From: Botryllus schlosseri
Lineage: Eukaryota
Assembly (NCBI GenBank): GCA_051294905.1
Contig: CM119372.1
Span: 12,464,001 to 12,528,000, forward strand
Length of the DNA stretch: 64,000 bases
Reading direction: 5' to 3'
A model generated the notes under the pieces. It had not been told where the DNA came from. It worked only from the letters and a program-made list of their open reading frames with translations, and ran no database searches. Positions 7,399 to 57,609 of the stretch are shown here, piece by piece. A program made the translations under genes and the position numbers. Position 1 is the stretch's first letter; each line of letters starts with the position of its first letter.

Positions 7399-7406
7399 TA
7401 TATAAA
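7399..7406 (+). promoter_or_regulatory. Putative TATA box of the single-TIL gene
   Basis: TATATAAA about 59 nt upstream of the ATG at 7458. Confidence 0.5.
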
Positions 7407-7457
7407 GATCAACAAATTGCCGGAAGGACACACGCAGTTCCAGCCTCCGCTTTCGAG

Positions 7458-15467: not shown

Positions 15468-15474
15468 TATAAAA
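15468..15474 (+). promoter_or_regulatory. Putative TATA box of the multi-TIL gene
   Basis: TATAAAA 57 nt upstream of ATG 15525. The spacing is similar to the small TIL gene and argues against the ORF-track start at 15432. Confidence 0.45.
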
Positions 15475-15524
15475 CCGACGAAATTTTCTCATTTGTTACA
15501 ATTCCCTACCCAGGTAGCACATTC

Positions 15525-37700: not shown

Positions 37701-40700
37701 AACGCTGCACACCCAATTTGGTTCAATTCTAACAAGTATAGGACTCCGCAGATCCAATTAAAATTTTTAATTTATTATGGAGAATTAAAAAAAAAATTTT
37801 CAATTTTTTCTGCCAACCCCATGAAATTGTTACGCTGTCTTCAAAGACCTTGCAAAACAAATTTGAGTCAATTCCGACCAGTAGAAGCGGAGTTATGTGA
37901 GTTTTTCGATGATAATCCACGGATTATCCTTGATTGGTGGATAATCCACAATTTATCAACGAAAAACTCACATAACTCCGCTTCTACTGGTCGGAATTGA
38001 CTCAAATTTGTTTTGCAACGTCTTTGAAGACAGCTCAACAAATTCATGAGGTTGGCAGAAAAATTTGAAAATTTTTTTTTTCAATTTTCCATAATAAATT
38101 AAAAATTTTAATTGGATCTGCGGAGTCCTATACTTGTTAGAATTGAACCAAATTTGGCGTGCAGCGTTTTTTAGGGTAACTTGACAATTTAATCAGTGAA
38201 TGGCTGGAATCCGGGAAAAAAAGTTATTTTTGAACAGCCCTGCCAGCACAGCCCATTGTTGCTGTGCCAGTTGCGCTCATTTTACATTTTATTTTTTGCA
38301 AATTGGTTGAAAATCGTCACTCTCCGGGATTCAGTTTTTGTACAGCGTGCTTTTCCAAGCAACTTCTGATGCGAGTTTTTAAACTTGGTTTAAACCGGAG
38401 CTGTGGTGGAGTCTGTTCACTTACCACCGACTCCAAACATTTTCAATATACTGCACTTTTAACCACACCGACTCACGCTGATAAGATTTCATTCACAGAA
38501 CTCTGACGCCAACTCCAACATTCCTGAAATTAATGCGTTTTTTAATTTGGAAAAAAAGTTCTCGCAGAAACAAATTGTGAACGTCCGCCTATATCGAACA
38601 CTCAGTAACTTCTGAAATTGCAATGGTCTTTTTAGTTTTGCACATAGTGGCAAAATTTCTAAGACTCCACCAGGAGAAAATTCCGACTCTCCAGCCCTGG
38701 TTTAAATCGACTGAGTGTAGTGCGCTGCTTGCTTGCTTGCTGGTAGCAGAGTAGACTATAGTTCTACTAAACACTGAAATGCTTTGTTGTTTCAGTGACC
38801 GTAATTCACTTTCATGGAACGTGGTATGGGTTTTGAACTCAAACTAACGATGAAGCCAGACGATTCGGGAGTGTTGACGTTTTATTTCTATATGCCAATT
38901 CTATTGTCAAGTCGTGTCTATTCAATTGAAATTTGCCATTACAATGTGTGCCAATGAAAATCAGTTACCCACTCCTACAGTCCTACAAGATATTGTAGGA
39001 TTCATAAGTGATCTCTTAAATTGCAGAAAGCGCACTTTAAAGAGCTTACCGCTCGATTATCCCATCTGAAATCGGTATGGGGTGGTGGAAACAATGACGC
39101 AGCAAAATCTTTCGGCGATTTGATGGTGTTGCTTGGGGCTATCGGATCCGCGGAGTACACGGGATTGTCTCACGGCTTGTGCGTTCAAAATTGTTTGAGG
39201 TACGCGACACAGTTGTGTTCTAGTTTTACGTGTTTGTCTACGTCAAGTTCTACGCGTCTGTTCAGGTATAAGGCTTTGACTGAAATTCGTAAGCTTCGTT
39301 CGCAAATTATCAACATCATCAACTCTGTCAATCCTGACAGTAATGTTTGTTTGACTTCGAAGATGGAACCGCCAAACAATAATCAGGTAGGGCCTCACGA
39401 AAGAAAAGTGGATCCAGCCATGATGACTATCTGTGAAATCTGTTCTGTTGACGATCAGTTTTTGTTATGCTGAAATGGTATGGCATATGAGCAACAGACG
39501 TATGTACCTGTACAATTGAGAAATTTAATGGAGCCCGACCTATATCGGAATTTCTAGCCGATACCAATTTCGACTTTATAACATATTTTGCCAACAAAGC
39601 AAAGCAACGTGTGACATTGGAATATGAGCCTTGTGAAGACCCTCCTCTGACTTGAGGATTTTAACCGTGAAATTGCCACTACGATAGGATGATGTTGCCC
39701 TTATATCATGGTGGCAGTGAATGATTTTGAAAATAGGAGCTATCTGTTGCGTCATCAGTAGGGCCATTTTTATATGACCTTAAAAAATCCATATTATGAC
39801 TTTATTTTTTGGAAAATATGACTTTATATGACTTTATGTGAAAATTGTGTATTTTTACATGCTAACAACGTCACTCACGGAACTAAAGAGTAAAACATAC
39901 GCAACATAACACATCCATTTTTATTTGAAGCCACTGTTGTAGTACAGTTTCATGTAGTGCGGAATGTTAGAGCCTTTGAAGTTATGATTTGGACGTAAAA
40001 TGACTTTAGTAAGGAAAATGAGCGCTCCACAGACGCTGATGTGGGTTGACACTTCTGCAGTTTTGCATAAAGCGATGGTGAAATGTCTCGTCTTTGTAGC
40101 TCCATAATTTTTTTCACATCGTTTTTGTCCAATTGCTTTTTAATGTAATTTTTGAGCTCAAGCGGATCTTTTCAGAAATCAAGGGCATTTAGATCAGCAT
40201 GGGCGTGTATGTAGGCTATAACTTTCCATTACAACATCACATCAGGTTGACGGTATACGTAGGCTATAATTTTCCATTTTCAGTATTAAGTTTGAAATAT
40301 TGTTATAGTGGAGGAAAATTGACTGAACAGTCAACTTTGGATCGTTGACTGAATATTTGATGCTCTTTACTTCACCTTCCTACGTCTCGGCATAATATTG
40401 AGCAACATTCGACCAGCTACCCCAACGAGTAACTGCCTTAGTTTCTTAGTGCTTGATTGCTTCACCACTTAAATTGGTACTTTTTATTTAAAGTATACTA
40501 AAAATATGACTTTATAACTTTCTTAATATACCCCGTAGGGATGCGGTTTTTACGTTAAAATTGATTTCACGACTTACTGATGCATAGAAAAAAATATGAC
40601 TTTAATGACTTTAAATGGCCCTAGTCATCAGTCCTTCTGCATTGGTCGCAAAGACCCATCTTGCAATTTTGAAAGCTTCTGTCGGCGTTTGCCTGTCATA

Positions 40701-42884
40701 AATCCGCAACGCCTCGTTACTATCTACTTGTTCAAATTGACATATTGAGTACCTTTCGTTTTGTACTTACAGGATGTCTCGAAAATTGCTTCATTACTAC
40801 TACTTGAGTAGCCTCGGAGACTTACTTTTTCCACCTCTCTCCAGATTACCTAACCTATGGTGCATTGGTTGTCTAATTTTTAGCGCGGTTGTGTCTGTAT
40901 TCACTTGAAATAACTTGTAACCGCTATTCATATAATTCAGATCACCTTGTTGCGACAAACCGTACTGTCCGCGATGGGCGATCACGTGGCTAGGAAAATT
41001 CCGGAGAGCCAGATTAAAAGCTTGGACGACCCGAAAGAAGTGAGAAGAATGACGGGGGCTTACAGTTGGTACGCGAAAGAGTTTTGATCTCGAAAACTAT
41101 GGTTGTTGAAATTTTTGTGTTGGTACTTGCGAAATATACCCGATTAGACTACTCTGGATGAGTTATTACATATCGTTTGGACCAGACTTGTAAATTTGTA
41201 CAAACTACTGGATTTTTAAAAAGCGCAACTGGAACTAGAACTTCTCAATTATTAAAACTCGCAACTAGAACTAAAGCTAGAACTACTAACTTTTCAAAAT
41301 CTGCAACTAAACTCTAACTATTCACTTTTCAGAATCTAGAACTTTTTACTTTTCAAAATCTGCAACTAGAACTAGAACTACTCAAACAACCATTAGGTAG
41401 TTGACCGTCAACTAACTGAGTAGTTTGTACAAGTCCCGTTCCTGGTTTGGCCGTCTCCCGGGAGTCGTATTGTGTCACGCTGACTAGAAAATCTTTGTTG
41501 TGGACAGAAGTGCTCAGTAACAAGGTACTTGCACTTTTTTTGAGTGCTCGAGTAGTTTGCTCGTACTTCTTATTCTTGTGGTTGTATTTTCGACAAATAC
41601 CTACTTGTACACTGTGGATTTTGTAAAGTAGGAAGTAGTATTGGGATACACTTTCATCCCTTTTATGTGTGAAATTATCATGACGAGTGGACGAAAGAGA
41701 CTCTTTATCACCGAGTATCTTCCAAAATTGCACCATCTGTGACAGTGTCAACGGTCTATAAAGGTCACTCTGTGTTAGTCGTGAAGACGCTCGCTGAAAG
41801 TTTGAAATGCGAACCAACAACCAACCAAGTCTATTTTTCGAAATTACTTGAGTATCTTCATTTTACCATTTTATTTGAAGTAGTTTTTCATGTGTGTCAA
41901 ATTGCCATTCTTTTCAGTAGAAATTTACGGCGTTACTTCTACGTTTACTCAAGTATCAATTCTGACTACTGATGGCTACCTGTGGTCTTCAACTTAGTGT
42001 GCTTGACCAAGCTCGCTTTTTCAGTCTCCTCACGACGGAACCTGTGTTCATCCATCCCACCTCCATCTATTTCACCAATTCCAAACTACCCGAGTACGTC
42101 GTTTTTCAAGAAATCGTCGAAACAAAGAAGTCCTACATGAAAGGTGACACTATATTCGCAACGACGAAAATACAAAATTACAAATTCATAGCTGTTCAAC
42201 AGATGTCATGACTATCGATTCCGTGTGGCTGTCGAAGTACTGCCCGCAATATTGCTCGTTTTCCGAGCCTTTGGAGGAACCGGCACCGTTTCTGGACAAG
42301 TCCGGCGTGGTTCGATGCCACGCGAAAACCTCGTACGGCAGGCTGTCGTGGCCTCTCGGCAATTCCGTGATAGCCTACCCGCCTGGTTTGAACAGGTGGA
42401 ATCGCGTTTTTATACTCTTCGCAGTCGCTGTGGAATTTGAATCCGATGTTTTTAAGATACAAGTGGTTCGCCAGATACATGCTGTCGGAATATATCGTGA
42501 AATCTCTACCTCGGCAATTCAGCGCGCTACTTTCCAACCCGGAAATAATGACCAGGTCGTGGGCGAAGTAGGTTTTGTTATTATTCTCAGTCGACTTTTG
42601 ACTGTGCTATTTCAAAACAAAAACACGCTTGTGTCGCAGTTTACAGCCTCGGACGCAGCTGATGCTCCAGTCTCTCATCGGTCAAGAAGTCGACTCCAAG
42701 GCTAAACTTCTTCAAGCTTGGCGTGACAGTCCGTGCTGTGAGTGTTTGTCGCTCTTCTTGTCACATTTGCATATCTCTTAACTGTGTGAGTTTGGGCGCA
42801 GTTCTTTTGGAAGAATTTCAAGAATGGCTGCCCGAGTCGATACGCGAAGACTTGTCTCCGCACTGGCCGCCGAAAGTGCGATGA
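25796..42884 (+). CDS. DHX37: DEAH-box RNA helicase DHX37 (Dhr1/kurz orthologue), 25 coding exons, 1157 aa
   Basis: Exons, all GT-AG and phase-consistent, total 3474 nt: 25796-25859, 26830-26972, 28638-28844, 29784-29859, 29924-30299, 30367-30477, 31601-31790, 31856-31957, 32644-32739, 32803-32974, 33841-33989, 34103-34224, 34285-34387, 34447-34635, 35350-35497, 37327-37481, 37544-37588, 39027-39199, 39266-39386, 40941-41068, 42025-42143, 42203-42395, 42457-42567, 42640-42737, 42802-42884. Motifs [80 protein letters not shown]37-type N-terminus (MARSRRKY...[23 protein letters not shown]). Confidence 0.95.
27031..27620. mobile_element. Charlie-like hAT MITE in DHX37 intron 2
   Basis: CAGGGGTGGCCAACC.../...GGTCGCCCCTG. 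TSD ACCTAGCT/ACCTAGCA. Confidence 0.8.
28950..29235 (-). mobile_element. tRNA-derived SINE (degenerate) in DHX37 intron 3
   Basis: Minus strand reads gtaatggtggagggtgcgacttgatcggtaggtcgtgGGTTCGATCCCcagcgggtcagaccgaa: a Pol III B-box and A-box-like head with no acceptor stem. The 3' boundary is approximate. Confidence 0.6.
30569..30878. mobile_element. Charlie-like hAT MITE in DHX37 intron 6
   Basis: CATGGGTTCCTA.../...TAGAAACACTG. TSD CCCTAGAC/CCCTAAAA (imperfect). Confidence 0.55.
33295..33808. mobile_element. Degenerate GACTCGAGTC-rich MITE in DHX37 intron 10
   Basis: Starts CAGGGTTGTAATGACTCG, with many gactcga/gagtc motifs at both ends. TSD unclear. Confidence 0.55.
35603..36953. mobile_element. 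hAT non-autonomous element in DHX37 intron 15
   Basis: TIR CAGTGGTCGGG/CCCGACCACTG. Perfect TSD ATATATAC. Confidence 0.85.
37627..38242. mobile_element. Foldback-like MITE family C, copy 2 (near-perfect ~300-bp arms) in DHX37 intron 17
   Basis: TAGGGCTGTTCAAAAATAACTTTTTT... mirrored by ...AAAAAAGTTATTTTTGAACAGCCC. Arms are complementary almost to the centre (~37920-37950). Confidence 0.9.
39759..40623 (-). mobile_element. Deleted hAT transposon with transposase remnants in DHX37 intron 19
   Basis: TIR TAGGGCCATTT/AAATGGCCCTA. Perfect TSD GTCATCAG. The minus strand encodes AVTRWGSW (~40410-40435) and [15 protein letters not shown] (hAT C-terminal dimerisation motif, ORF 39950-40132). Confidence 0.85.
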
Positions 42885-43345
42885 CGGGACGGGCGTTAAG
42901 ACGAGAGGTGAGGCGGGTTTGAATTTGTCGCGATTAGGGATTGTCACAGCGGTTCAAGTAGTTAGAGTCGATAAAGCTCGAGTATCCAAACTATACTCAG
43001 GAGTAAAATTTCATGAACCGAAAATATAGTTTGCGTACTGTGCTTCCGCAGTCGTTCAGTTCGTTGTAGTTCATCATCGAAAAACATGTCACACAAGGCT
43101 ACGAATGTTCGATTGTTCATGGTACGACATTTTTACCAAGTACTGATTGAGCCTGACAGTGGTTGCAAGGCGATTCGAAATAGTTATGGTCCAGAAATGG
43201 ATGACGTGTAACCAGGGCTGTGGAGTCGGTTCCTTTTACCACCAACTCGAGACGTTTTTAGTATACCGACTCAGGAAATTTCAAATTCTCCAACTACGAC
43301 ATTCCTGTAAATCTACTCGGAAGATTATACCTGTATTACATTTTT

Positions 43346-43655: not shown

Positions 43656-44284
43656 CAAATTTTTAGATATGTATGGTTCACAGAAATTATGAAAACTATT
43701 GTCACAGAAAGAAATCAACTTGTGATGGGCCGAAAACGTAAAAACTTGATGACTTCTGCAACTGCAACCTCACTTATCGGCAACATTTAGTTCGATTTTA
43801 AAGTAGCTGAGTCGGAGTCGGAGCATTTTAACAAACTCCGACTCCAGCCAATATGTGCCTCGCCAACAGCTACTCCAATGAGTGCTACAGATATTCTGTG
43901 ACTCCGACTCCAACAAGAGAAAATTTAACGAAACTCCGACTCCACACAGCCCTGCGTGTAACACGCTTCGTGTCCTCGGAAAAGATGCATATTTGAATGA
44001 ATAATAATTTCGTTATTACTGCTACGACATATAGTTGGTACTCGAATGCTCAAATCAAAGCTTGATACTCGACCTGGAATCAAATCGCTCAGATACTCGA
44101 TTTTGCCCAGATCTGGTCGCAATGTATGGATGAGTGGACTTCTTGCTGGCGCAAAGGGACTTTTGTTGAATGATGCGGATCTTACCTCGCTTAGCTAGTG
44201 TGATGATTGAAATTAAAACCAGCGTGACCCTATGAGGAAAGTCTGTCTCGTGTATGGTTGGTCGTGTAGTACGCGTGTGCCTCG

Positions 44285-47200
44285 CTACGTTTGAATTTGC
44301 TCGATGTTGGATTTGGATATTCCGTAGCAGGAATCTCCTTGCGTTCTGCCGACGTTGGTTTGAGTGCTATCTGTCGGAGATCTCGGAACGGGGGGAGTTG
44401 CATTCGCGCTGACTGTACGTTCCGCTTGACTGTTCGTTATCTCCTCTCTTGGCGAGCGCTGGTCTCGTGGAATCCCGTTCGTCGTTGATTGCGTCCAGGA
44501 CCACTGTCGGCTCGATTTCACGAGACCCGGGCTGCTATTTGACTCGTGCGTGCGTGTCACGTTTGCTTGCCTTGTCTTGGACGAACGCGTGCTGAACGAT
44601 ATAGAAATATAGCGATCGCTCTGGTATCACACCGATACGAAGCAGGCCGGCTGAGTTGGAGAACTAAGAAATTTACAGCTTTTCCAAATAAGATTACATT
44701 TAGAATTATAACTAGTTAGTTTTCCAGATTAGATTAGAAAATCGAATTGAATTCCGAATTGTATAGAAATACGACAACAATAAAATTCAGTACGTGTCAA
44801 ATCGGGCTTCAATCTCGTAAGTATGAGAATGGCAAATATATGTACAATTGTACATGTACTGTACATTGTATTATAGTGCACAACAAGCTTGGCTTGTTTC
44901 GCACTATGCAGTTCACCAGCGGCATTTTGAGGAAACCAGCAATTAGACTACCGGCATGTAGCTCTAAAATTCGTCTAATTAGGTTACCTGAACGTGGTGG
45001 CGGGATTGTAGCGTCTGTGCTCCGACTCGTACTTGTTTCTGCACATGTCCGCGATCTCGATTACGGTGAGCACGCAAGAAGCCTGCGAAATGTCGTCAGG
45101 GCTGTTTGACGCGAAACTCGAGCGGCAAGCATGGTCGCACAAAAATGCGAGCACTTGACTTAAGCTTTTCGGATTACTCGAGTAGGATATACCTAGTTGC
45201 GCTACTTACTCGAGTGGTTTTGTTTTAGGACTACCTCCTTTTTTATTCTACTATTTTCAGGCAACATTGCAGTTTTGAAGGTAGTTTTGGGGTAGGTTTG
45301 CACTGCTGTCATGAGCAATGCTCCTAATTTTTTACGAGACACCCCCAACTCGCTGCCCGGTCCCTTGGACAACAATGCGTAACGACTAAAAAAAGGTCAT
45401 CACTTCGGATTTCTCTCTGCACGGCCGCGCACGCGCGCAGCTTACAGGGAACATTAGTCATGAGTGAAATTGTCACAAGGACTGATCGCATGTATTGCGG
45501 TACCTGAATAAATTCTCAAAAATTGCTATTGCAATTGCAATTTAGCCGCAAACAATATATTCATATTGCCAAATTTATTCCACTCTTACCTTATCGACTG
45601 ACTCACGTCAGGAGCGAACGTCAGTAAATGAGGTTAACCAAATTCAAAATACATTCTTTCTATATTTGGGATTTGGTTTACCTCATTTACCGACGTTAGC
45701 TCTTGATCAGAGTCGGTTGAAAAGCTTAGAATGGAATGCATTTGGCAATATGAACATATTGTTTGCTGCTGAATTGAAGTTCTGTACTTCCAAAAGCCTA
45801 TCAATGACAATTGGTCGTTCTGCGTTGGGCGTTGGGTCGCGCAGAGACATCTTGCCATTACTCGAGTACTTTTTAGATCTATTATTTTCTCCTTTCACTC
45901 AAAGTGGTTTTGACCTGTCTTGGAAATAGCTACTTCTACACGAGGCGCAAAGCTGATTACTGTGACCCCCCTCTAGCGACTGTAGCCGTCATATACTGTA
46001 TGCTGGGATGGTTTGCATGGTCGAAACGCTAGCAAATTTTCGATTTCCTTACCAGGTTGACAGCTGCAAGAAACCACAGGAAGCAAGTCTTTTCGCTCGC
46101 TTTGTCGAGCAGGTCGCATTTGACCGACCCACCGTAGCACGTCAGACTCGAGGGAATTCTCCAGCCGTAAAGCACGGGGATAGTCACGACGCACGTCAGC
46201 TCCAGAATGCACCTGTTGAACTTGCGGCAATGAAATTCGATGTGAAATGTGGTGGGCGACGCCGACAGCGAAGCTGTCACCGAGCTCCTGTGGGCGTAAT
46301 AAAGAATGTAGGATTCGAATTGTGTTTATTCTCGCAATTTGTGGAAGAAGACGATGGTTTTGTTATTCGTGCGGTGGTTAGGGAAGCGTAGGACCTATTA
46401 TTTAGGATTCGTCTTTGGGTGTGTATCAGGAACGTGTGACAAAACGAGTAATGTCTTGGCCAACTGGGAATTAGGTATTGCCTTACGTCTGGGGCGGCCA
46501 ACCTTAATCAGTCGTAAATAAACTTTCAAAGCAAAACATACTGGAACGGAAACGCTGTGCGTTAGGGCTGTTAAAAAATAACCTTTTTCCCGGATTCCAT
46601 CCATTCACTGATTAATATGTCAGGTTACCCTAAGAAACGCTGCCCACCCATTTTGGCTCAATTCTAACAAGTATAAAACTCTGCAGATCCAATTATTATA
46701 TTTTAATTTATTTAGGAAAATTCAAATCTTTGTGTCAACCCCATCAAATTGTTGAGCTGTCTTCAAAGACGATGCAATACAAATTTGACTCAATTCCAAC
46801 TAGTAGAAGCGGAGTTATTTAAGTTCTTCGTTGATAACTCTCGGATTATCCACCAACCAAGGACCTGACAATTTAACAGAGGTGGTCAGTAACGAAGTAC
46901 TTCTACATTTTTGAAGTACTCAAGTAGCTTTCCGTTACTTTGGTACTTACTAAAGTAGATCTAATTTCCCACTACTTCTACTTCGTGATTTACTTTTCGC
47001 TATTTTCAGTTTGTCAAGAAGTAGTTTATTGTTCCAATCAGGAAGATAGCCCGAGGAATTTCGGTGCTGTTTTCACGGAGTATCAACATCTAATTTACAT
47101 AAAGTTGAGTAAAGCCCAGAATTTTCGTCGCGCAGAGTGGATATGGAGTGACGGGTATGATTTCACGAAAGTGTCGGTGAATATAATTTAGGTAGCGGGT

Positions 47201-50200
47201 TGCGTGCTTCCGTCCACACCGCATTGACGCCCTTATGAAATATTTTATCACAGTAGATATGGCCCATCATAACGCTTGAAATTGATGTTTCGCAATCTAG
47301 CATTTACTTCTCATATCGTAATCTAGCAGTCCGTGGCGTGTACTAATCTGGAAAAGTGGACTCCGACTCTTTTTTGTTAGCTTTAGACCTGTTTTAGCAT
47401 ACCACCTTTGAAACTTTCTGGACCAAAGACATGAAATACATTTTCCGCTTTTAGAAGTGGTATCTCTTTCAATTCCCAGTATCCTACTTTGAGTTCTGAT
47501 AGTTTCAGTTCTTTTGTCTTGAAAACATACATGTTGAGGCATAAAAGCAAGTGTAGAAATGCCTTTAATTTCCAGAAATATAGCTGAAGAGCTTCTTGGA
47601 GGTACAGAACTTCAATATACAATTGAATAGTAGGCTATATTCATATTGCAATGAACCCGAATATTTTCGGCTGACACTCGTCAGGGGTAATCGTCAGCAA
47701 CTAGTAGAGAATTGGAAATACCATTGTATATCAACAATCGTATCGCAAAATATGACGTCACCAGCATGAAATTTCGAATGAGAGAGCGTTCAATGTACTA
47801 TTTTTAGGTGATACACGAACTCCTTTTGTTGACAGAGTTTTGGTTGGTGTATTTTGGTTAAAGTCGACTCCAAGGCACACAAATGGAATTGTGAACGGCA
47901 CCGCCCAACGATTCGAAATCGGTCGTCTCGATAGAACAGATGTTTGCAGATGGCAGAATTAATCGCCTTTGATCGATCAGCATCAATCTTAAGCGGATGA
48001 GTTAGGGGTGAGCTTTTCACTGAGCGTGATGCACCCCTCACTTTGCACCATTCTGCATCTTTCACCTAGTTCAATTTGCAGCTTTTGACTATCCATGCGA
48101 ACGAATTACAATCGTTTTCACAAGTACTTCCTTACTTGAGTAGATTCAAAGTCAGTCAATTCTACTTCAAGTAGTTTTCGGTTGCTTATGTAAGAAGTAC
48201 TTTTACTCGTACTTGAGTAGATTTTTTCGTCGCTACTTCTACTCGAGTAGCTTTCTTGACTACTTTGAACACCTCGGCAATTTAATCAGTGAATGGCTGG
48301 AATTTTTGAACAGCCCTACTGTGCATTCTACCACCCCCCCCCCCTCAAAAAATAATTTGAAGATGAGGTACCTTCATATCCCTTTGTCATGAAAGTAGAC
48401 TCTAATCAATAATTTTAGTCTGTGTAGCATAGTTTATTCCGCACAGTCGACCAGAGGATAATCATGTGCATCGTGCAATTGTCCGTGACTTCTAAAACAC
48501 CTTCCTATCAGAGGTGGTCAAAGTAGTCAAGAAATCTACTCAAGTAGAAGTAGAAGTAACGACGAAAAAATATACCCAAGTACGAGTAGAAGTACTTCTT
48601 CCATAAGCAACCTAAAATTACTTGAAGTAGAAGTAGAATTGACTGACTTTAAAAGTACTCAAGTAAGTAAGTAGTTATGAAAACGATCCTAATTCGTTCA
48701 CATGGACTGTAAAAAGGTGCAAATTGAGCTATGCGATAGGTGACGAGCTTGATTCATATTGATGCATACCAGCAGGTATCCAATTTTCGCTAGCATAAGT
48801 AGGCTATTCGTCCACATCATGGGGTGAAAATGATAGTATTGATGTGGAAATGCGATGCTAATCCTCTGTTTTCTCGAACAGCGCGTTTTAGAAAATAGCA
48901 TGGAATGGCGCCATTCCCCATATTATAAGGCTCGCAGTTTAGTCGAAGAGCAATACGGAGACAAAGTTGTATAGGATACGGTGTAAACACTTTGCGCGAT
49001 TAGTAAACGTTAATAAAATTATGGTGGACCGTAAAAATGCCATATTGTATAGCTTTATTTCCAGAAATTAAGGGCATTACTACACTTGCTTTTATACTTC
49101 CACATGTATGTTATCCAGACAAAAGAACTGATAATAATTATAACTCAAAGCTTATGATACTGGGAATTGAAAGTGAAATATAAATACTACTTCTGAAAGC
49201 AGAACATGTATTTCATGTTTTTAGTCCGGAAAGTTTCAAAGGTGATATGCTAAAACAGCTCTAAAACTATAAAAAAAAAGTCAGAGTCCACTTTTCCAGA
49301 TCTGGACACGCCATGGTCATGCTAGATTACGATATGACAAGTAAATGCTAGATTGCGAAACATCTGTGTCAAACGTTATATACTGTGATGAATTATTTGA
49401 TATGGACGAAGGACGACAATGCGGTGTGAACGGAACCACACCAACCCTCTACCTAAATTATATTCACCGATACTTTCGTGAAATCATACTGGTCACTCCG
49501 TATCCAGCACTGCGCGTGAAGCGCGACGAAAATTCTGGGCTTTACTAAACTTTTATGAAAATTAAATGTTGATACTCCGTGAAAACAGCCCCGAAATTCC
49601 TCAGGCTATCTTCCTGATTGGAAGATTGAACTACTTCTACTTGACAAACTGAAAATAGCGAAAAGTAAGTAAGTAGATCACAAAATATTACGAAGTAGAA
49701 GTAGCGAAAATCAGATTTACTTGAGTAAGTACCAGAAGTAGAGGAAAACTACTTGAGTACTTCGAAAAAGTAGAAGTACTTCGTTACTGACCACCTCTGC
49801 TTCCTATATATATAATGTAGCGGCCTTTTGTTTTATTTGGTCACGGGTCGTTGAGGAATACCAGTTCTTATATGTCTAATTACTGTTTCGGAATAACAAA
49901 TTACGGATGATTCGGCGTTCAAGAAATAATTTCGGAAAAAGATAGCCGCGTTGGCTACTCCTCAGTTACGTCATCGCTGAGGCAAATTTATTGTATAATT
50001 TTGTCCATATAAAGCCACAACTGGCCACAACAGACCGGGACATGAAAGCAAGGGCATGGGCAAGGCTGCACCTTTTGCGCATTTGTACTCCAAAAGCACG
50101 CTTGTAGAGAAGTTATGGTACCGAGGTCGTTGTAAAGCGATTACCTATAGCCTACATCAGAAATTCCCAAATTTAGGTATCATAATCGCACTCTACCTTA

Positions 50201-53200
50201 GATTGACTTTCATCAAATGAACAACATAGGTAGTGAGACACGGCCAGCGAATCCGCGTGGGTTTGCACACCACGTACTCCTGTTCGTCAGTTGCCGGCGT
50301 CCATGGCAGCAGCACAAGGGGCGGAATAAATGCGGTCAGCGTGCTTAATCCCCATATTGTTATCGGTGACACGCCCGAGTATGCGGAACTGTCAGGCATG
50401 TGGCAAAGTCGGTTAAAGTGTCTTATTTGAAAACCCGCAAGACTCACTTCATACAACTCATCATCACCTCGTATGATGATGTATTGATCGCGGAATCGTT
50501 AGCTGGCGTCGTGGAAGCCTGCATGTCGCCGCCGGGGGTAGCTCTCCTGTAAGAACAGAACTATTACGCAGCGTAAGCAACACATTGACACGATGTAGCC
50601 TACTTGGACTTTATGTGCACTACAGTACAGAGCTAGAGGTCCTCTGCATTAAGATGGTTTCAAATGGCTATCCACATCCCGTGAGAATTACTTAGCAAAT
50701 GAAACTCGCATGCACTACATTGTAGTTACTACAAATCACAAGACCTTTTGCTGCTTTTATTTCCACCATTGCAAAATATTCTATCGTGAATCAATCCATT
50801 TTGAAGCGAAAACCGTTTTTGTGTCTTGAAAGTGATTAACTCTTTCGACGCCGCGTATCCCCATATGTTCGCTAGAGATTGTCTTCAAAACGCCGCGTAT
50901 CCCCATATGTTCGCTAAATCGAGAGAGCGTATTTTTGTCTCGAAAATCTGACATGCCGTTTTGCGTCCATGGCAGTCGGGGCATTGTGCGGTAATGAATT
51001 CAAAATTCAAGACTTGCTACTAAGAAACAATTTTGCTGGATTACCTGTACGGAATAGTAACTTTATTTGATATATATTTCCACGACGGTAATGATTTTCA
51101 ACAGATGCCAATACCTAAAGACATTTTACATCATTATCACCAATCTTTAGCGACACATCGCGCGTTAAGTTAATATACGGATCTACTGAAGCCACCAAGT
51201 CAGTACATGTACTGCGACAAGACAGACTTCACACCAATATATACGTATTTATTCAAGTTTTTCAAACGTAAAATTGCATCGGGAGATGACGAGGACTCAA
51301 CGGAGACAAATAATGATGTTTTTGTGCAGATCGTTGCTTGTAATCGTACACAAATGGGCTCCGTCGGTATGTTACTGCGCCTGAAAAACAAACTTGAGTA
51401 CCGGTACTAGCAGAAGTCAAATTTTCGAGCCATTATTGCGGATTTGACGTCACAATGATAACCTTGAAGCATCGACGGCCGAAGATCATGTCGGCAGCAG
51501 TATTTCACGACGGTTCTGAACCTCCGCATTGCCATTGAAAAGGAATTAACGATTTAAGGATAATATATTATCAATATATAATATAATAAGAATATTCTGT
51601 GGAATTTACAACGTCACAGCTAATCTATAAGTACCATAGAAACACCAACAAAATCCATACCTTAGCAGCAGCGCGCCTGAAATCAGCCAAACTTCAGTTC
51701 GTACCGAAGCCTGTCCTAGCAACACGACAGGATCAATCAAGGCACGTTACGCATCGTTAGATAGATATCGTTTGCGGCTACAATACGGACGTAGGTACGT
51801 CTCGGTAGCTAAGGTAGCGACGAAGTTACGATCGGTTGAAATTGGGGTTATTTGGTGAAAATCGCGGCGTTTTGAAGACAATCGTCAAATTTAGCTCGGC
51901 GTCGAAAGAGTTAATGTGTGGAGGTATTCCGTTTTCGTGCAACCCCGTCATTTAATTTTCGAAATTTCTCAATCCCTGAAGAAATTACCCAAGACGATTC
52001 CAACAGTAGGAAAAATCAATAATTATGTAGAATTGAAATACACCTGCATCCGTAGGCATAGCCAGGATGGAAATTTGCAGGGGGCGAAACATTTTGAACT
52101 TTGACGTGACGTCGCAGAGTACTGATGACGTCACAATTAACAAACCGAATATTTGGAGAAGGCAAAGGCGTCTTTCGACCCCTTGGCTATAAGGGGTGGT
52201 CAAATAAGTTAGCGCGTTGTGACTTATGTAGAATTAACGCTGCGTATTCCTTCTCAATCACAAGTAGAAGTAGCAATTTCGGAGACATGTCAAATTACTT
52301 CAACTGGAAGTAGAAAATGGTTTGAAAAGTACTTGCATACTTTTAGCGTCTAAACAATTGTAGCTAACTATCGATATTTTTCAACATGTGTCCTTCGACT
52401 AATTCAAGATGACTGGACTGACACTGCAAATAGGTACTGAATCTTAGAAAATATATTCAGTTACCGCGATGCAGAGGCTATTTGATGCGGTTCTTATGAC
52501 AATTCCTCTCATAAGAGTGAAGCAAATTTATCTCAAAACTATAAGTCTACTTTCTATTTTTTTTAAATCCAAATTGTAAAAATTCGTTTTGCCCAAAAAC
52601 ATAGCTACAATGGAAGTAATATAGTCTAATAACATAACCACTTTCAGAGTAAGTAGTGCAAATTTTCAAAACGTGCTGAGGTATTACAAAAAGTGTAAGT
52701 AGCCTACTCTGTTGTACTGACCACCTCTGGTGCCCAATGCCTGCATACCTTACTATGTTATCAATGGCGAGCCATGAGATGTGTCGAAAGACGCAATGAC
52801 CTGCTATAAATCGTGTTTCACTTTATTCTATTACGTCACCATCAATCTCTAACGTCACTGCATTGTTGAGGGGTTTTACCCTTTCAAATTCTTGTGCCGT
52901 CGATATATGTTACAAAGCTCCGCTCCGCTATTAACGTTCAGGTCTTTGTTACCAATCTTTGATTTAGTCAACACGCACGACGAAGGACTCCCATTGTCAC
53001 CTTGTATCGCCCTTGCGTGTCTCCGTTGATGAGCAGTTCATGCCGTATGGATCGTTTCCAAACAATCTTCCACAAAGTGAGCCCAGGATAATAACTCGTA
53101 AAATCATGAAAACCTGGGAATTATACGTTTAAGATTGTTATTCTATACGCAAGATCGAATAGTATACACCAGCGCTTCCCAGCCGGTGGATCGCGAAGCT

Positions 53201-53282
53201 ATTACAAGTGGGTCGCGAAGCATTCCTAAATATTACAGGTTTCTCTTCAATATGTCGCAAAGAGAGAGAGAGAGAGACAGAC

Positions 53283-53316
<34 letters not shown>

Positions 53317-55705
53317 GGAGAGAGAGTCTTCATTTTCATCCAACTAAAATACTTAACAAACAAACGGCAATGATGGTGGTACAAAAAATATGCATGCACA
53401 GTATTCGGTGTCAGTTAGGAATAATCGATTGACGATGAACTATAGTCTGATCACACCCTCATCAAACAGGTACATTTGCCTCTATACAGTCTGGCTGTAA
53501 AAAATGTTAGTTAAAAAAAGGAAAACGAAAAAGAAAAATTAAACGATGGTATAGCAAAAGATCAATAAAGGTCTGGTCGAGGTAGGACAATATAACGACA
53601 AGAGGTGATTAAAAGTAGGTCTTTTTTAGTCTATCATCAGGCCTTTCACGGATATGTTGTGGTAATGCATTCTAGATGATAGGTCTCGAGTAGTCGATAG
53701 ATCTCTTAGGTAAGTATAGATATTTCTCTTTGACGTGCTACACAAAGTTTTACTTTTGATTGGTATGGAATGCCGGCAAACTTCCAATCGATGTGATTGC
53801 AGGTATGTATACAAAATACGGCAATACTGACTATTTTACATGTCTGTCGGCCTGTGGCCGTTGGTCTTAAATAGTAGTACCTCAATTTTAGGTATTTTTG
53901 GATATTTTTGAGTAAGAAAATCACGCCAATCAAGCCCAGAGTTGATCTGATAATATCTAATATGCAAGCTTAACTTTCGTATTAATTGGAAATTGCATGT
54001 TTGTATACAATGCTTCTTTTCCCAATAACTTGTTTTTCCTTCGTTTGGTCATATTATCTCATTGTGGGTCCCACACTAAAACTTGCATTAAAAGTGTTTC
54101 GCGATCTGAAAAAGATTGGGAAGCACTGGATAGTGGCTACACAATAGCGTAATCACTGGCCAGGGATGTAATTTGTAGTTTCGTTCACTATTCACTATTA
54201 GTAGCATCAGGTTGCTGACGATCTCATGCATCCGACGTTTCGATAAAAGTATTTGGAATGGATCCGTGCATCCTCCTATCATCAAGTCAGATAGCGAATA
54301 CACCAGCCACAAGCCAGTTCGTAAAGCATTGTGTGTCAAACTGATCGCAGTGATTCTTATGAGATATATTTCAATTATTCATGACTTCTGTGTATGACAG
54401 TACATATTTTGAAAGCATTTGCTATTAAAATTCTATACGAACCCGGGATTGGATACATTGAACACAGTGGCGTAAGGTGAGGTTCATGGCTGGTGATTGC
54501 TCAACGAAAAGGACGAAATAGAAAACGAAAACAACATTTTACTTAAGATCATAATTTCGGTTATATATTCTCTATTGTCCTTTGCTCGTCCAATCTTTTT
54601 TGACAAGATTGAAAGTATCTGTATCAGCAAAACTAAATGTGTCACTCACTATATAAGATCAAACTTAAATGGTTTAAAACACCATTCATACAAAGGAAAA
54701 TCAGGGTTAGATTCACGACTGGTGATGCAGATTTTCTTGGAGTAAGATTCGCAAACACCAAACCTAAAATGTAAATTGATTGAGTTGGCGACCTGTTTCT
54801 TATCACATTAGACATCTTCACCCGCAGGTTATCTAGGCTTCTCGTCGCCATTTGATCCGCGTTTGCGGTGTCTTACAAAAGCCTAGAAGTATGGGCCGGG
54901 CTACAAGTCGGCAGATATGGAATCATAATGTAGGATATCGGCCTGGTGTAAATGACCATGACAATCAAAAGCATTACAAATGCCACAAACAACAACAACG
55001 CAGGCTATGTAAAATAGCTATTACATGCCACAATTTAAGGGTCGGTATGAATGGAAAATACGTTACAGCTACATCAGTAAAGGAATGTATTTGCTCCGCA
55101 TTACGAATTAGGCGTCGCAACCCCACAATTCCTACAGCCCTGTTGGTTTCCGAAATCGATAGCGCGTTTCAGTGTGCTGTGATTATCCAATTTTTAGGGA
55201 ACAGTGAGTGAGGCATATATTCGTCCCCACCTGGCTATCTCTTCTCTGCGCTGTCATTGTACGTAACAAAAAAGTATAATTTCACATTCGTTGGTGAATT
55301 TGAGGGGGTCTGGTGCTCTGACATTAATTGTTAATATTCGGGTTTTCGGAAACAGTGCGACAATAGCATTTGATTGATACCAATTAATATAAATACTGAG
55401 CTGTTTATGATAAATTGCATTATCCCAGGTGAGGCACGACTCATCTGTGCCTCACTTCTCCTTTCGCGGTGTATTTTTGAACAATAAGTAAAAAAATTGG
55501 TGATGAAGAAATGTTCAAATTTAGTTATTCATGAACATCAACGGAAAATATCAACATATAATCATTGAAGGTTCTCACAACTTTCTTTTACTCATCCGAC
55601 GACAGATGGGGCACTGCCTCATTTGCCTCCCCTGACTGCGCCCACGTCACTGATTGAACATATTCGGCCAATTAATGAAATTTAACATTATTTTTCTATG
55701 GCGAG

Positions 55706-55772
<67 letters not shown>

Positions 55773-56217
55773 TCCCTCTGTGTCCTACCACTGGCATATA
55801 GTACCATAACAAGATGGTATTATCGCTTCGGTAATTGAAGGTTGATTGATAGATTGATTGAAGTGGTTTTGCGGCAGGGACGGTTTAGTCAACATCGCTA
55901 TACAAGCTGAAAGCGCGGTCTCGTAATTGAACACCATCGGACATTTAGTGAGTATATATAGTCGCACACATTTCGACTACAGCTGCGCAACTACATTATA
56001 TCAGTACAGAAGGGAACGCGGGCATTGTATAAATATTATCTGAAATCTTTCAAAGTCATGACCACGACCAATATTTTAGCTCTGGTATGACATGGGCGGA
56101 GCGCTTTTGCATCAAATTACCTACCATAAATTGAGTGTATCCGATGGTTCGTGATGTTGTGAATACTCCATTTATTAGACAATTCCATGACCAATATCGG
56201 CATTGGTCGGTGAACAT
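44285..56217 (-). CDS. Divergent connexin (gap-junction family) with 4 extracellular Cys, 7 coding exons, ~352 aa
   Basis: Exons, GT-AG and phase-consistent, total 1059 nt: 56217-56125, 53113-53001, 50546-50448, 50388-50197, 46212-46053, 45082-44988, 44591-44285. Connexin landmarks: WNCLINGVFTTSRTIGYTQFMVFMILRVIILG (N-term/TM1), SPITIWGLSTLTAFIPPLVL (TM2), CLTTYVVHL...RCILE...LYGW (TM3), KASEKTCFLWFLAAVNLASCVLTVIEI (EKT motif/TM4), and a Ser/Thr-rich tail. The start codon and the splice just before TM3 are less certain. Confidence 0.85.
45316..45456. mobile_element. Small hAT MITE in a connexin intron
   Basis: CAATGCTCC.../...GGGAACATTA. TSD GTCATGAG on both sides. Confidence 0.7.
47586..48065 (-). 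mobile_element. Penelope-like element 3' fragment (GIY-YIG C-terminus plus pLTR), nested in MITE D1
   Basis: ORF 47790-48065 SAICKHL...DDRFRIVGRCRSQFHLCALES...QPKLCQQKEF resembles the Penelope GIY-YIG endonuclease C-terminus (SAI.EH...F.IL...L...E...P.LN.Q). This stretch is absent from sister copy D2. Confidence 0.7.
47655..47688 (-). ncRNA. Minimal type I hammerhead ribozyme motif (Penelope-associated), copy 2
   Basis: Identical core to 43390-43423. Sense orientation relative to the connexin pre-mRNA. Confidence 0.7.
48509..49799. mobile_element. hAT MITE family D, copy 2, inverted relative to copy 1
   Basis: TIR CAGAGGTGGTCA/TGACCACCTCTG. Perfect TSD CTTCCTAT. Its right end is the reverse complement of the D1 left end. 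Confidence 0.9.
50840..51910. mobile_element. piggyBac-like non-autonomous element in connexin intron 2
   Basis: TTAA|CTCTTTCGACGCCG...CGGCGTCGAAAGAG|TTAA. Subterminal inverted repeat GATTGTCTTCAAAACGCCGCG/CGCGGCGTTTTGAAGACAATC. Confidence 0.85.
53261..53326. repeat. (AG)n microsatellite
   Basis: Interrupted agagag run. Confidence 0.95.
54465..55652. mobile_element. hAT-type non-autonomous element in connexin intron 1
   Basis: CAGTGGCGT.../...ACGTCACTG. Perfect TSD ATTGAACA. Carries a (CAA)n retroposon tail inside. Confidence 0.8.
55707..55772. repeat. (TCAA)n microsatellite
   Basis: About 16 perfect TCAA units. Confidence 0.95.
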
Positions 56218-57609
56218 CTCTTTTTCATCTGGAAAAGGCCAAAGCAATTGTTGTTCGAGTATAGGTGTATATTCCCCGCAATCAGTTCACTCGAAAATGG
56301 AACCGAACGGAACCAATGACAACGAAAAAGCATGATCGAATTTATAAAACATAACATAATTTTTGCGGACGGTACACGTCACACACAGCCCCAAATATCC
56401 CATCGATAGAGTGAGGTCATCCATGCTCAATTATGCACATGTGCTAGCTTCGCATGCTGTCGAGTTCAGATCAATAAATTTACATTTTTACTGGAAAGGA
56501 GTCGAGCAGCAATTTTTTTAAATTTTGGTTTTCAATTTTGCAAAGTGACTATACCTTTTAAATTCACTTCGTCTTACGAAGAGCATAAAACGAAAGTGAG
56601 CCGTGCTACAAATCAGCAGATTAAGAATTATAATAAGGAATTTTGGCCTGGTGTAAATGACCATATTAGTCGAAACACCATGAACAACAAAAATAACAAC
56701 GACAACTTCGTCTCTTATATCATTTTGGCAATGGTACCAGACATTAGCAGCATTTCATATATATTACCTTCGTGAATTTCGATATTATTAGGATGTTCAT
56801 GTTCATTGACGCTCTAATTTCAACAGTATTGAGTGGATGAGTGTGCCCTTCAGCTCACTGGTTCTCAGCCGCCGGTGCCGTGTCAATTTACTACCGGGTC
56901 ATAAAATAGTTTTCAATATTTTTTATTTGGTAAATGCAATAAATTGGACGCTTGCCAATTCATTAGTAAAATGAAATTTCAAAGTTATAATTGACCATTA
57001 AACTTGTGATAAATAAGATCTTATTGATAACCCAGCGTCAGGTAACTGACTAACCAATGTGAGGCAACGACTGACCTTCATCGAGTCTTGTTTGAAAATA
57101 TCTTTCTGTGCACGGGCTCGATGACTTGTCGCGATAATCATCATCCGTAATACGGACGATGCTCGTTGCGCGCATTGTTGTAACGACGTTGCCGATGTGA
57201 CGTATTTTAGTCAAGTGAGTCAGGGTAGTATTGGCATAGTCCGCTCATTCATATTATACGCTCTTGTAGCAATGACTGTGACAACCTGAACGTTACAGGC
57301 TACGGTGATTTCTTGGATAAGGAATCCTGAAACACAATTAACCTCATAAATAGTGTTTTAATGAATTTCCACTGTGCATGTGCATGACTCTTATTTACAT
57401 GCTCTAGGCCTAGGTGGGTGCCTGATTGATAGACTAATCCAAGTCGCTTCGGCACCCTCCTATCTTTTCATTATATCACAATCTTGTGGTCTTTTTATTT
57501 GATTATTATTTTAATAAAATGTCGATGATGATGATGATGAAGTTCGAATTCGTGCTTGGTCGGGATTCGGAGGTTTAAATGCGTATCTTCACAAATGGTA
57601 TGGTATAAT

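Follow-up and report, generated by a model that had tools for sequence, protein, structure and literature searches.

A divergent ascidian connexin homologue with four loop cysteines and a sequon-bearing insertion in the first extracellular loop

The window, that is, the whole 64,000-nt stretch of Botryllus schlosseri DNA that was analysed, contains a gene of seven exons, which runs on the minus strand from 56217 to 44285 (Table 1), and has splice sites that are all AG acceptors and GT donors when read directly. These exons were spliced into a connexin in the original prediction, and they do join in frame, giving a protein of 377 aa with four hydrophobic segments in connexin order in its hydropathy profile. 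The region of the N-terminal helix is encoded by the first exon (e1), in which the first transmembrane helix (TM1) also begins. The second exon (e2) supplies the remainder of TM1 and the start of the first extracellular loop (E1), which there includes C58, an NCS sequon, and the initial ~10 residues of an insertion. Most of the insertion was thought to have an exon of its own, and the 99-nt e3 does encode ~30 of the 41 residues that separate the E1 cysteines, and it also carries two further sequons (NDS and NTS) and the other E1 cysteine (C100). E1 is completed in e4, which goes on to encode TM2 and a short loop on the cytoplasmic side, bearing the conserved motif C-x(6-7)-WPC. TM3 and the second extracellular loop (E2, C-x6-C) are found in e5, where TM4 also begins. 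The remainder of TM4 follows in e6, together with the first part of the C-terminal tail, and the Ser/Thr/Arg-rich tail is encoded by e7.

Table 1. Exons and associated features of the gene, as positions in the window.
Feature	Position	Strand	Basis
e1 acceptor AG	56232-56231	-	used by the X3 contig, which is placed on 56123-56230
Exon 1 (e1)	56217-56125 in the original model (ATG 56217); 56125..56230 by RNA	-	donor gtaggt
Exon 2 (e2)	53001..53113	-	cccag/G ... AAG/gtgaca; X3 contig
Exon 3 (e3), 99 nt	50448..50546	-	ttacag/G ... GAA/gtgagt; X7 joint
Exon 4 (e4)	50197..50388	-	splice sites; X7 contig; tblastn with Styela
75-nt in-frame stretch	46213..46287	-	present if the upstream acceptor 46287 is used
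Exon 5 (e5)	46053..46212 with the conserved acceptor (46287-46053 in the original model)	-	Pfam, orthologue colinearity, RNA joint
Exon 6 (e6)	44988..45082	-	X1 joints and one X23 read
Exon 7 (e7), coding part	44285..44591	-	stop TAG 44287-44285; X1 contig 44311-44591
3' untranslated region, at least this far	43700..44284	-	X1, X3, and X7 contigs beyond the stop codon

The original model probably needs to be amended at two points. The e5 acceptor at 46212 is favoured over that at 46287, because the protein is colinear with its orthologues only in this case, and the use of 46287 would add an insertion of 25 aa that has no counterpart in the three orthologues. The protein predicted with acceptor 46212 has 352 aa, and its extracellular loops are the same as those of the 377-aa model. 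The intervening 75-nt stretch represents either an alternative acceptor or a retained intron: an X3 contig extends into it as far as 46246, and an X1 contig (46054-46627) is unspliced to 46627. Four SNPs are listed in these 75 nt, three of them non-synonymous, and two in the 160 nt of e5. The N-terminus is also probably longer than that given by a start at ATG 56217. The X3 contig uses the e1 acceptor (56231/56230), and at least one further exon must therefore lie upstream; the same contig has 246 further letters, none of them placed on 56231-56500, while an X1 contig is unspliced up to 56297. The N-terminal extension comprises 45-65 residues in the orthologues of Styela and Phallusia. The tblastn search for the corresponding upstream exon or exons did not find them, and returned only weak matches at 61984-62113, on the wrong strand.

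The gene is expressed, at low RNA depth and abundance. The RNA data consist of raw reads (X23) and contigs (X1, X3, and X7), the label "RNA?" of the coded runs being a guess, and the spliced contigs stem from three separate studies. The e1/e2 junction is found in the X3 contig, which is placed on 56123-56230 and joined to 53000-53111. Two junctions, 53001/50546 and 50448/50388, had been singled out for confirmation by RNA. The second of these is present in an X7 contig (depth 9) that covers 50195-50387 of e4, and in which the single letter intervening in the joint 50387/50448 is a synonymous SNP at 50388; this contig also places the 99-nt exon in RNA, as anticipated. The first junction (e2/e3) is absent among the rows listed for the RNA contigs, and we infer its use from depth arithmetic and from the X3 contig, in which a single further base (G) follows 53001. 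The e5/e6 and e6/e7 junctions are found in an X1 contig, with joints at 45081/46052 (cut +1) and 44591/44988, and e6 is further backed by one X23 read. A 6-nt in-frame insertion behind 45027 in X1 adds two residues, giving the length of the orthologues. Beyond the stop codon, contigs are placed at 43826-44152 (X1), 43700-43989 and 43993-44511 (X3), and 43838-44016 and 44091-44519 (X7).

Orthologues are found as single copies in Styela, Phallusia, and Clavelina, where they are already known to public databases, under the name "uncharacterized". These proteins are colinear with that of the window, at 37-45% identity. When the Styela orthologue was used as a tblastn query, matches were recovered in colinear order across the exons, with E-values of 3.7e-21 in e4 (60% identity), 7e-11 in e5, 6e-7 in e1 (Styela residues 44-72), 8e-6 in e2, 0.007 in e6, and 3.2 in e3 (Styela residues 124-140, 53% identity). 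On these alignments, the gene structure is far above chance expectation. The gene is single copy in the Botryllus schlosseri genome, where a search for paralogues of e4 and e5 found none, the next matches having E-values of 3.1 and 0.5. A chance chain of open reading frames, or a functionless pseudogene, is a highly improbable account of the locus. It could appeal to the Pfam connexin family (PF00029), which has no match in five of the six open reading frame pieces tested, and which yielded 80 exon matches in a scan of the whole genome, none of them in the window, and also to the unspliced contigs, which include a further one at 50527-50779. This account is refuted in practice by the spliced RNA, the colinear orthologues, and the Styela tblastn matches, to which can be added a frame that is intact over seven GT-AG exons, and the conservation of the cysteines, sequons, and motifs.

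The extracellular loops of the spliced protein read as had been proposed, with an E1 of C-x41-C (C58 and C100) that bears three N-X-S sequons (NCS57, NDS85, and NTS90), and an E2 of C-x6-C (C216 and C223). The middle residue of the NCS sequon is itself the disulfide cysteine. Whereas canonical connexins have three cysteines per loop (C-x6-C-x3-C and C-x4/5-C-x5-C), there are two per loop here, and also in 3/3 of the orthologue species. Alignment to the canonical paralogues confirms the predicted loss of the middle cysteine from both E1 and E2, the retained cysteines being those of the first and third positions in both loops. Given the known pairing, this absence would remove one of the three inter-loop disulfides. 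In the same genome, all eight of the canonical E1 segments recovered are C-x6-C-x3-C, and all 12 of the E2 segments have three cysteines, with no sequon in either set. The E2 is four residues shorter than the canonical loop, the length of which varies in this genome (C-x8-C-x15-C in 4/12). The insertion lies between the two E1 cysteines, has 30-41 residues across the orthologues, and is acidic and rich in Ser, Thr, and Asn; its site is presumably that of the E1 docking residues of canonical connexins, as in the Cx26 structure. The acidic residues at the TM1/E1 border, which we take to form the pore mouth of canonical connexins, are mostly replaced in the alignment. Colinearity with the channel-forming connexins is kept in the N-terminal helix motif, the transmembrane helices, and the E2 hairpin, including its EKT motif.

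Profile comparisons identify the protein as a connexin homologue, albeit a highly divergent one. A search with PF00029, which had been suggested as a check, gave a mixed result, in which e5 (the only exon with a match) has an E-value of 1.6e-4, but a score of 22 bits, below the gathering cutoff of 31.3 bits. The orthologue of Phallusia exceeds this cutoff (33.8 bits), while those of Clavelina (26.6 and 24.1 bits) and Styela (18.6 bits) do not, so that three of the four orthologue proteins fall below it. The conclusion that ordinary HMM scans overlook this gene is supported. A profile of the family itself matches connexins in 28 of the 28 distinct PDB sequences at E<=1, including Cx36 (the best, at 6.9e-7), Cx43, Cx46, Cx50, Cx31.3, Cx32, and Cx26, which bears out the predicted connexin identity. 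When half-profiles were searched against 4,099 open reading frames of the same genome, the N-terminal half found the canonical N-terminal exons L006, L014/L021, L008, L016, and L003 at E-values of 1.4e-4 to 0.015, with the first decoy at 0.72, and the C-terminal half reached a best E-value of 1.2e-9. The homology thus spans both halves of the protein (NT-TM1-E1-TM2 and TM3-E2-TM4) in colinear order. The innexin and pannexin families (PF00876 and PF12534) have no match in the window exons or in any orthologue.

Other comparisons returned little. No significant match in the window was obtained with a profile built from three close canonical paralogues (E 1.1 in e5). When a family alignment of two sequences was compared with a single canonical paralogue by hhalign, the probability was 1.9% (E 0.026), this alignment being too shallow to be of use. 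A word-indexed protein search with e5 against longer proteins had no match. Protein searches returned only Styela and Phallusia when the profile was built from these two, and added Clavelina and canonical tunicate connexins, with no vertebrate connexins, when a mixed profile was used. The structure models lend weak support to a connexin fold. When canonical connexins were included in the alignment, which biases the result, the AF2 model of the Styela orthologue had a mean pLDDT of 56, and all 50 of the chains listed for it are connexins, with TM scores by target of up to 0.70. With family members only, AF2 reached a pTM of 0.38 and no meaningful PDB match, the first connexin being at rank 33. 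In the ESM Atlas model of the Phallusia protein, connexin clusters occupy the first four rows (TM 0.68-0.70), and LRRC8 and pannexin clusters are listed below them. The nearest ESM Atlas feature cluster is a cluster of 215-aa chordate connexins, which is only a lead on a possible grouping with vertebrate GJE1.

The orthologue group is conserved across ascidians, on the evidence of these alignments, and the gene is not unique to the Botryllus schlosseri genome. Conservation of the sequons and of the four-cysteine pattern in other ascidians had been raised as a check, and the 2+2 cysteines, the C-x6-C of E2, the E1 insertion, and two to three E1 sequons are retained in 4/4 species, representing three ascidian orders. 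The E1 cysteines are separated by 41 residues in the window protein, 41 in Styela, 30 in Phallusia, and 33 in Clavelina, and the loop bears three, three, two, and two sequons, respectively. The composition of the whole protein predicts 0.34-0.62 sequons per loop, and loop shuffling returned P values of 0.10, 0.02, 0.14, and 0.17 in the same order of species, which are not independent of one another; the excess per species is modest. Two sequon columns are common to the window protein and Styela, and the NCS sequon is common to the window protein and Clavelina, and absent from Styela and Phallusia. The sequence of the insertion is poorly conserved and its sequons persist, while conservation of E2 is high across the four orthologues, and the family has its own conserved cytoplasmic cysteine motif.

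The persistence of a sequon-bearing insertion suggests a channel to the outside instead of a cell-cell junction. The protomer would keep the connexin layout, with the N-terminal helix motif, four transmembrane helices, the E1 strand, and the E2 hairpin, while its outward docking surface would be rebuilt by the loss of the middle cysteine pair, the shorter E2, and the insertion. Such proteins would assemble into connexin-type oligomeric pores, in which the glycosylated E1 cap would sterically block head-to-head docking, leaving a plasma-membrane channel to the outside, analogous to the pannexins and hemichannel-only connexins. We put the probability of this reading, which draws on sequence and analogy, at roughly 0.5, and a "pannexin-like, non-junctional" function is plausible. 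The cysteine pattern in itself argues weakly for the absence of docking, because Cx23, which lacks the same pair, reportedly assembles into gap junctions in addition to hemichannels (PMC4729916).

This precedent also favours the unlikely alternative of a connexin that is still junctional, in which the rebuilt loops would provide a private docking specificity, either homotypic or with a single partner, and the sequons would either carry no glycan or be tolerated. Functional gap junctions are reported to include seven innexins that have extracellular sequons (PMC8769644). The conservation of E2 is as expected of an interaction surface, and the length of this loop is already variable among the tunicate connexins of this genome. 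However, the docking contacts of solved connexins are presumably made by the stretch that follows the first E1 cysteine, in place of which the insertion is found, and the combination of a variable sequence with persistent sequons is more in keeping with a carrier of glycans than with a specific interface. The connexin-like proteins of anthozoans, which have enlarged loops, also gave no cell coupling (10.64898/2026.06.13.731801).

The protein might, on the other hand, form no pore of its own. A connexin-derived four-TM protein of this kind could be a subunit with a modulatory role or in a heteromer, could serve in adhesion or recognition, or could reside in intracellular membranes. Its extreme divergence, with the Pfam scores below the cutoff, would fit this idea, as would the family-specific cytoplasmic motif, the low RNA abundance, and the replacement of what are presumably the acidic residues of the pore mouth. 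In Styela and Phallusia, the N-terminal extension precedes the helix that gates canonical pores, and such an extension might not be compatible with the lining of the pore by a canonical N-terminal helix. This reading nonetheless has a low probability, given the segments that remain colinear with channel-forming connexins, and the data hold no pointer to any specific non-channel role.

The connexins are described in reviews as not glycosylated (PMC5983588), and glycosylation is the accepted reason for the failure of the chordate pannexins to form junctions (PMC8769644). A conserved connexin with sequons in a docking loop would represent a natural experiment on the choice between junction and hemichannel, which could be tested directly by deleting a single exon or the three asparagines. 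The gene also extends the diversity of the tunicate connexins by a branch that has been overlooked, and that databases list as "uncharacterized". In the literature outside most subscription journals, nothing was found on the protein (including LOC100176175), or on a glycosylated tunicate connexin.

The canonical tunicate connexins, such as the Styela "gap junction beta-2 protein-like" (P0010), share the superfamily, the N-terminal motif, the four transmembrane helices, the EKT after E2, and a multi-exon structure with the present gene, but are easily found by PF00029, and have ~20% identity to its family. The hemichannel-only vertebrate connexins (Cx31.3/GJC3 and Cx29) retain all six cysteines of the loops, and are not known to carry an E1 insertion or sequons. 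Hemichannel structures of Cx31.3 are among the PDB matches of the family profile. Both Cx31.3/GJC3 and mouse Cx29 are thought not to form gap junctions (10.64898/2026.06.13.731801).

The 2+2 cysteine pattern is shared with vertebrate connexin 23 (GJE1, epsilon clade), a known exception to the three-cysteine loops of the family. To our knowledge, Cx23 has a short coding region, with no large E1 insertion, extracellular sequons, or N-terminal extension. The second cysteine of both loops is lost in the present protein, as is described for Cx23 (PMC4729916). Cx23/GJE1 is a very divergent, long-branch member of the family, and gje1 was not found in lampreys or hagfish, according to PMC7914757, while its homotypic docking is reported as weak or disputed (10.64898/2026.08.31.743583). 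The pannexins have a four-TM large-pore subunit with two cysteines per loop, and their docking is hindered by N-glycans on the extracellular side (PMC8769644). These chordate homologues of the innexins are proposed here as a functional analogy, with no sequence relationship to the present protein.

The connexin-like proteins (CxLs) of anthozoans and protostomes also have two cysteines per loop and larger, elaborate loops. In the anthozoan members, these loops are proposed as a docking block, and the proteins behave as hemichannels without coupling; the accessible text of this preprint has 0 occurrences of "glycos" (10.64898/2026.06.13.731801). Many of the CxLs of anthozoans and protostomes occur as the N-terminal domain of an NLR or another immune protein, and the anthozoan ones are single-exon, whereas the present gene is a stand-alone, multi-exon chordate gene. 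With the origins of the connexins now pushed back to the cnidarians, this gene bears on the question of whether the four-cysteine state is ancestral. It is tempting, but tentative, to propose that the ascidians keep a dedicated N-glycosylated connexin, an obligate non-junctional large-pore channel with its docking face capped by an exon-encoded, glycan-bearing insertion, as a pannexin-like route inside the connexin family, and that it might also be what survives in chordates of an ancient two-cysteine-per-loop lineage, linking the connexin-like proteins of anthozoans and protostomes to the vertebrate GJE1.

The seven-exon gene on the minus strand, read directly, spliced, and translated, contained all of the features listed in the original prediction, at the positions given there. 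The splicing of exons e1–e7 through canonical AG/GT sites gives 377 codons in an unbroken frame, with four hydrophobic segments and two cysteines in each extracellular loop, that is, Cys58 and Cys100 in the first loop (E1), enclosing 41 residues, and Cys216 and Cys223 in the second (E2), enclosing 6. Three N-X-S/T glycosylation sites (sequons) are found in E1 (NCS57, NDS85, and NTS90). Of the 41 residues between the E1 cysteines, approximately 30 are encoded by e3, which also contributes the second cysteine and two sequons, NDS85 and NTS90.

Positions of the exons of the connexin gene and of other features of the window
Feature	Position	Strand	Remarks
e1	56217-56125	minus	AG/GT-bounded open segment, as originally modelled
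e2	53113-53001	minus	AG/GT-bounded open segment
e3	50546-50448	minus	AG/GT-bounded open segment, exactly 99 nt
e4	50388-50197	minus	AG/GT-bounded open segment
e5	46287-46053	minus	AG/GT-bounded open segment (acceptor as originally modelled)
e6	45082-44988	minus	AG/GT-bounded open segment
e7	44591-44285	minus	AG/GT-bounded open segment
Simple repeats, introns 1 and 2	53250-53330; 55700-55783		GA/CT-type microsatellite; tetranucleotide repeat translating as INQS; both excluded from read mapping as repeats
Foldback, intron 4	46877-49799		Large structure
Foldback, outer inverted arms	~46877-47585; 49051-49799		Six collinear pairs, 86-92% complementary
Foldback, nested inverted pair	48056-48243; 48549-48742
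TIL domain	7308-7778	plus	~8 kb upstream of the nine-repeat frame
Nine TIL repeats	15432-17627	plus	Single 732-codon open frame; trypsin-inhibitor-like cysteine-rich (PF01826), E 9e-52
DEAH-type RNA helicase	~29700-43000 (e.g., 37164-37604)	plus	Exon-like pieces, upstream of the connexin gene 3' end, on the opposite strand

Among six ORF pieces, the Pfam Connexin profile (PF00029; gathering cutoff 31.3 bits) matched only exon 5, at 22 bits, under the cutoff, and in a six-frame scan of the 495-Mb assembly with this profile, all 80 exon matches lay on other contigs and the candidate gene gave none. Genome searches with e4 and e5 found no paralogue of either. When exon 5 was searched exhaustively with HMMER, six proteins were recovered at E<=0.001, three of which are relatives: Styela clava XP_039267619 (annotated as "uncharacterized protein LOC120342721"), Phallusia mammillata CAB3260896 ("uncharacterized protein LOC100176175", named after a Ciona locus), and an 82-residue fragment. 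The other three have no connexin domain. In a later search, a profile also recovered Clavelina lepadiformis LOC143449040, which is uncharacterized at NCBI, and bears the automatic UniProt name "Connexin cysteine-rich domain-containing protein". The window protein is 44.8% identical to the Styela protein and 36.5% to that of Phallusia, and tblastn with the former recovered e4, e5, e1, e2, e6, and e3 in order, with E-values of 3.7e-21 to 3.2.

Every one of the 28 different PDB sequences matched by a profile of this family at E<=1 is a connexin, with Cx36 at the top (6.9e-7). The Phallusia protein scored 33.8 bits against PF00029, above the cutoff, with Clavelina (26.6 and 24.1) and Styela (18.6) below it. 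The N-terminal half of the family matched the first exons of canonical connexins of the same genome at E-values of 1.4e-4 to 0.015, in a database of 4,099 ORFs in which the first decoy appeared at 0.72, and the best E-value of the C-terminal half was 1.2e-9. The PDB matches, the Phallusia score, and the matches of both halves support the identity of the protein as a hidden connexin, nearly missed by ordinary scans, which we conclude to be a genuine, if extreme, connexin superfamily member. The evidence from modelled folds is mixed. The AF2 model of the Styela protein matched connexins in all 50 of the chains listed, but its mean pLDDT was 56 and the input alignment included canonical connexins, and AF2 with the family members alone gave a poor model and no structural match. 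In the ESM Atlas, the model of the Phallusia protein recovered connexin clusters first (TM 0.68-0.70), with LRRC8 and pannexin clusters behind them, and the nearest feature cluster was a 215-residue chordate connexin cluster.

The original prediction had described a paired loss of the middle cysteine, and this proved correct: in alignments to the canonical paralogues, Cx36, and Cx43, the cysteines that remain in each loop are the first and the third, and E2 has a four-residue deletion. The check proposed there in other ascidians was for the four-cysteine pattern and the sequons, and both are conserved in 4 of 4 species. The two E1 cysteines are separated by 41 residues in the window protein, 41 in Styela, 30 in Phallusia, and 33 in Clavelina, and E2 is C-x6-C throughout. 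There are three E1 sequons in the window protein and in Styela, two in Phallusia and in Clavelina, and none in any E2, against the 0.34-0.62 per E1 expected from whole-protein composition. When each loop was shuffled with its own residues, the probability of reaching the observed number was 0.10 (window), 0.02 (Styela), 0.14 (Phallusia), and 0.17 (Clavelina), which is a modest excess in each species, and the four species are related. Two sequon columns are common to the window protein and Styela, one of them also to Phallusia, and the NCS position is shared by the window protein and Clavelina. Apart from the sequons, the insertion is weakly conserved; it is acidic, with a net charge of -2 to -5, and has many Ser, Thr, and Asn residues. 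High conservation is seen in the C-x(6-7)-WPC motif on the cytoplasmic side, in E2, and in the transmembrane helices. The canonical paralogues had three cysteines and no sequons in all eight E1 and all 12 E2 segments, which were chosen by a pattern demanding three cysteines. Canonical connexins also form tandem clusters on two other contigs, at C11:17416818-17455151 and C13:6657600-6702102 (loci L002-L005), the latter including four single-exon copies that are almost identical and whose E2 (C-x8-C-x15-C) is unusually long; one of these copies has an internal TGA.

The splice junctions were compared with the raw RNA-seq run X23 and with Logan contigs of runs X1, X3, and X7, from three other studies, whose RNA nature is only a guess. 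RNA depth is low over the whole gene. One of the X3 contigs covers 53000-53111 together with 56123-56230, which, allowing for a shared GT, is the junction 56125/53113 (e1/e2). An X7 contig (depth 9.1) covers 50195-50387 and continues at 50448 after one letter, a synonymous SNP at 50388, which gives the e3/e4 junction 50388/50448. Joints 44591/44988 and 45081/46052 occur together in one X1 contig, and the second also in one X23 read. Two further contigs, both of X1, run unspliced over 46054-46627 and 50527-50779. The e2/e3 junction was absent from the joints listed (20 joints and 7,650 pieces lie beyond these), and the edge of an X3 contig, together with depth arithmetic, points to it indirectly. 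This contig extends one base (G) past 53001, which matches the first base of e3 and mismatches that of e4. The X3 bin depths of 0.23 (50105-50531) and 12.4 (50532-50958) equal the listed contigs plus approximately 33 of 36 leftover contig letters on 50545-50513, where the skipping of the exon predicts 0.44 and 12.2; the same arithmetic gives the X1 (0.05) and X7 (4.66) values exactly.

Protein alignment is colinear with the orthologues only if exon 5 begins at 46212 (caacag|GT); the acceptor at 46287 produces a 25-residue insertion present in no orthologue. The X7 contig stops two letters beyond the donor, at 50195, which fits an exon starting with GT (46212) and misfits GA (46287), and 46262-46688 has zero depth in X7 and X23. 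Among the SNPs listed, four fall in the disputed 75 bases (three non-synonymous), versus two in 160 bases of e5. The conserved acceptor is thus probably 46212, although an X3 contig extending to 46246 speaks against this site alone, and both acceptors may be in use. Both forms are in frame and leave the loops unchanged, and a Clavelina isoform has a four-residue difference at the corresponding junction. The true N-terminus is probably longer than originally modelled, because an acceptor at 56231/56230 is used by the X3 contig, the frame remains open across it, and the orthologues are extended, with 45 (Styela) and 65 (Phallusia) residues preceding the N-terminal motif. This contig has 246 further letters without a match on 56231-56500, and tblastn of the Styela orthologue on the window found no upstream exon. 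In exon 6, X1 has a 6-nt in-frame insertion at 45027, adding two residues (Val-Tyr) behind NK in the post-TM4 motif. With these two residues the length matches that of the proteins from Styela, Phallusia, and Clavelina, and the insertion is therefore a natural indel polymorphism.

The foldback of intron 4 resembles either a foldback transposon or a dispersed repeat present in two inverted copies. At 47543-47969, raw reads reach depths of 56 and 51, and summed contig depth up to 43,000 in X1, with many loose ends clustered at 47585-47636 and reads carrying fixed differences; this signal comes from a dispersed repeat or small RNA family with high expression, and not from the connexin gene. In intron 2, between exons 2 and 3, 50836-51702 is covered by RNA contigs (depth 43-100) and raw reads (depth 17-31), and 20 X23 reads are spliced at 51379/51660 (CT..AC, which reads GT..AG on the minus strand); this is a distinct transcript of higher abundance. 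Elsewhere in the window, the helicase pieces include HA2 winged-helix and ratchet domains (E 3e-6 and 1.5e-4), and TIL-type repeats typically show long antisense open frames.

In solved gap junctions, docking contacts are made by the stretch behind the first E1 cysteine and by E2 between cysteines 2 and 3, as in the Cx26 structure. In the candidate, the former bears the sequon-carrying insertion of 30-41 residues, and the latter is shortened. The most economical reading, to which we give a probability of about one half, is a connexin-type oligomeric pore that would be unable to dock and would act as a plasma-membrane channel, with E1 glycans that would play the part glycans have in pannexins (PMC8769644). 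This non-docking reading is limited by Cx23, which, without the same cysteine pair, is reported still to make junctions and hemichannels (PMC4729916), and by seven sequon-bearing innexins that belong to functional junctions (PMC8769644). It is limited, too, by the N-terminal extension and by the replacement of acidic residues where TM1 meets E1, as gating could be altered or a pore lacking altogether. A pannexin-like function of the candidate is a plausible hypothesis.

A literature search, largely outside subscription journals, found no paper dealing with the orthogroup or with a tunicate connexin that bears sequons. Connexins are stated to be unglycosylated in reviews (PMC5983588), a phrase that four further papers in the search also carry. 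The gene is already present, unrecognised, in the databases, and its combination of features is new within a known family. The 2+2 cysteine pattern is already known in Cx23 (GJE1), and a 2026 preprint (bioRxiv 10.64898/2026.06.13.731801) describes anthozoan connexin-like domains whose enlarged loops have two cysteines each and which behave only as hemichannels. The candidate could be the tunicate counterpart of GJE1 or of these invertebrate connexin-like proteins.
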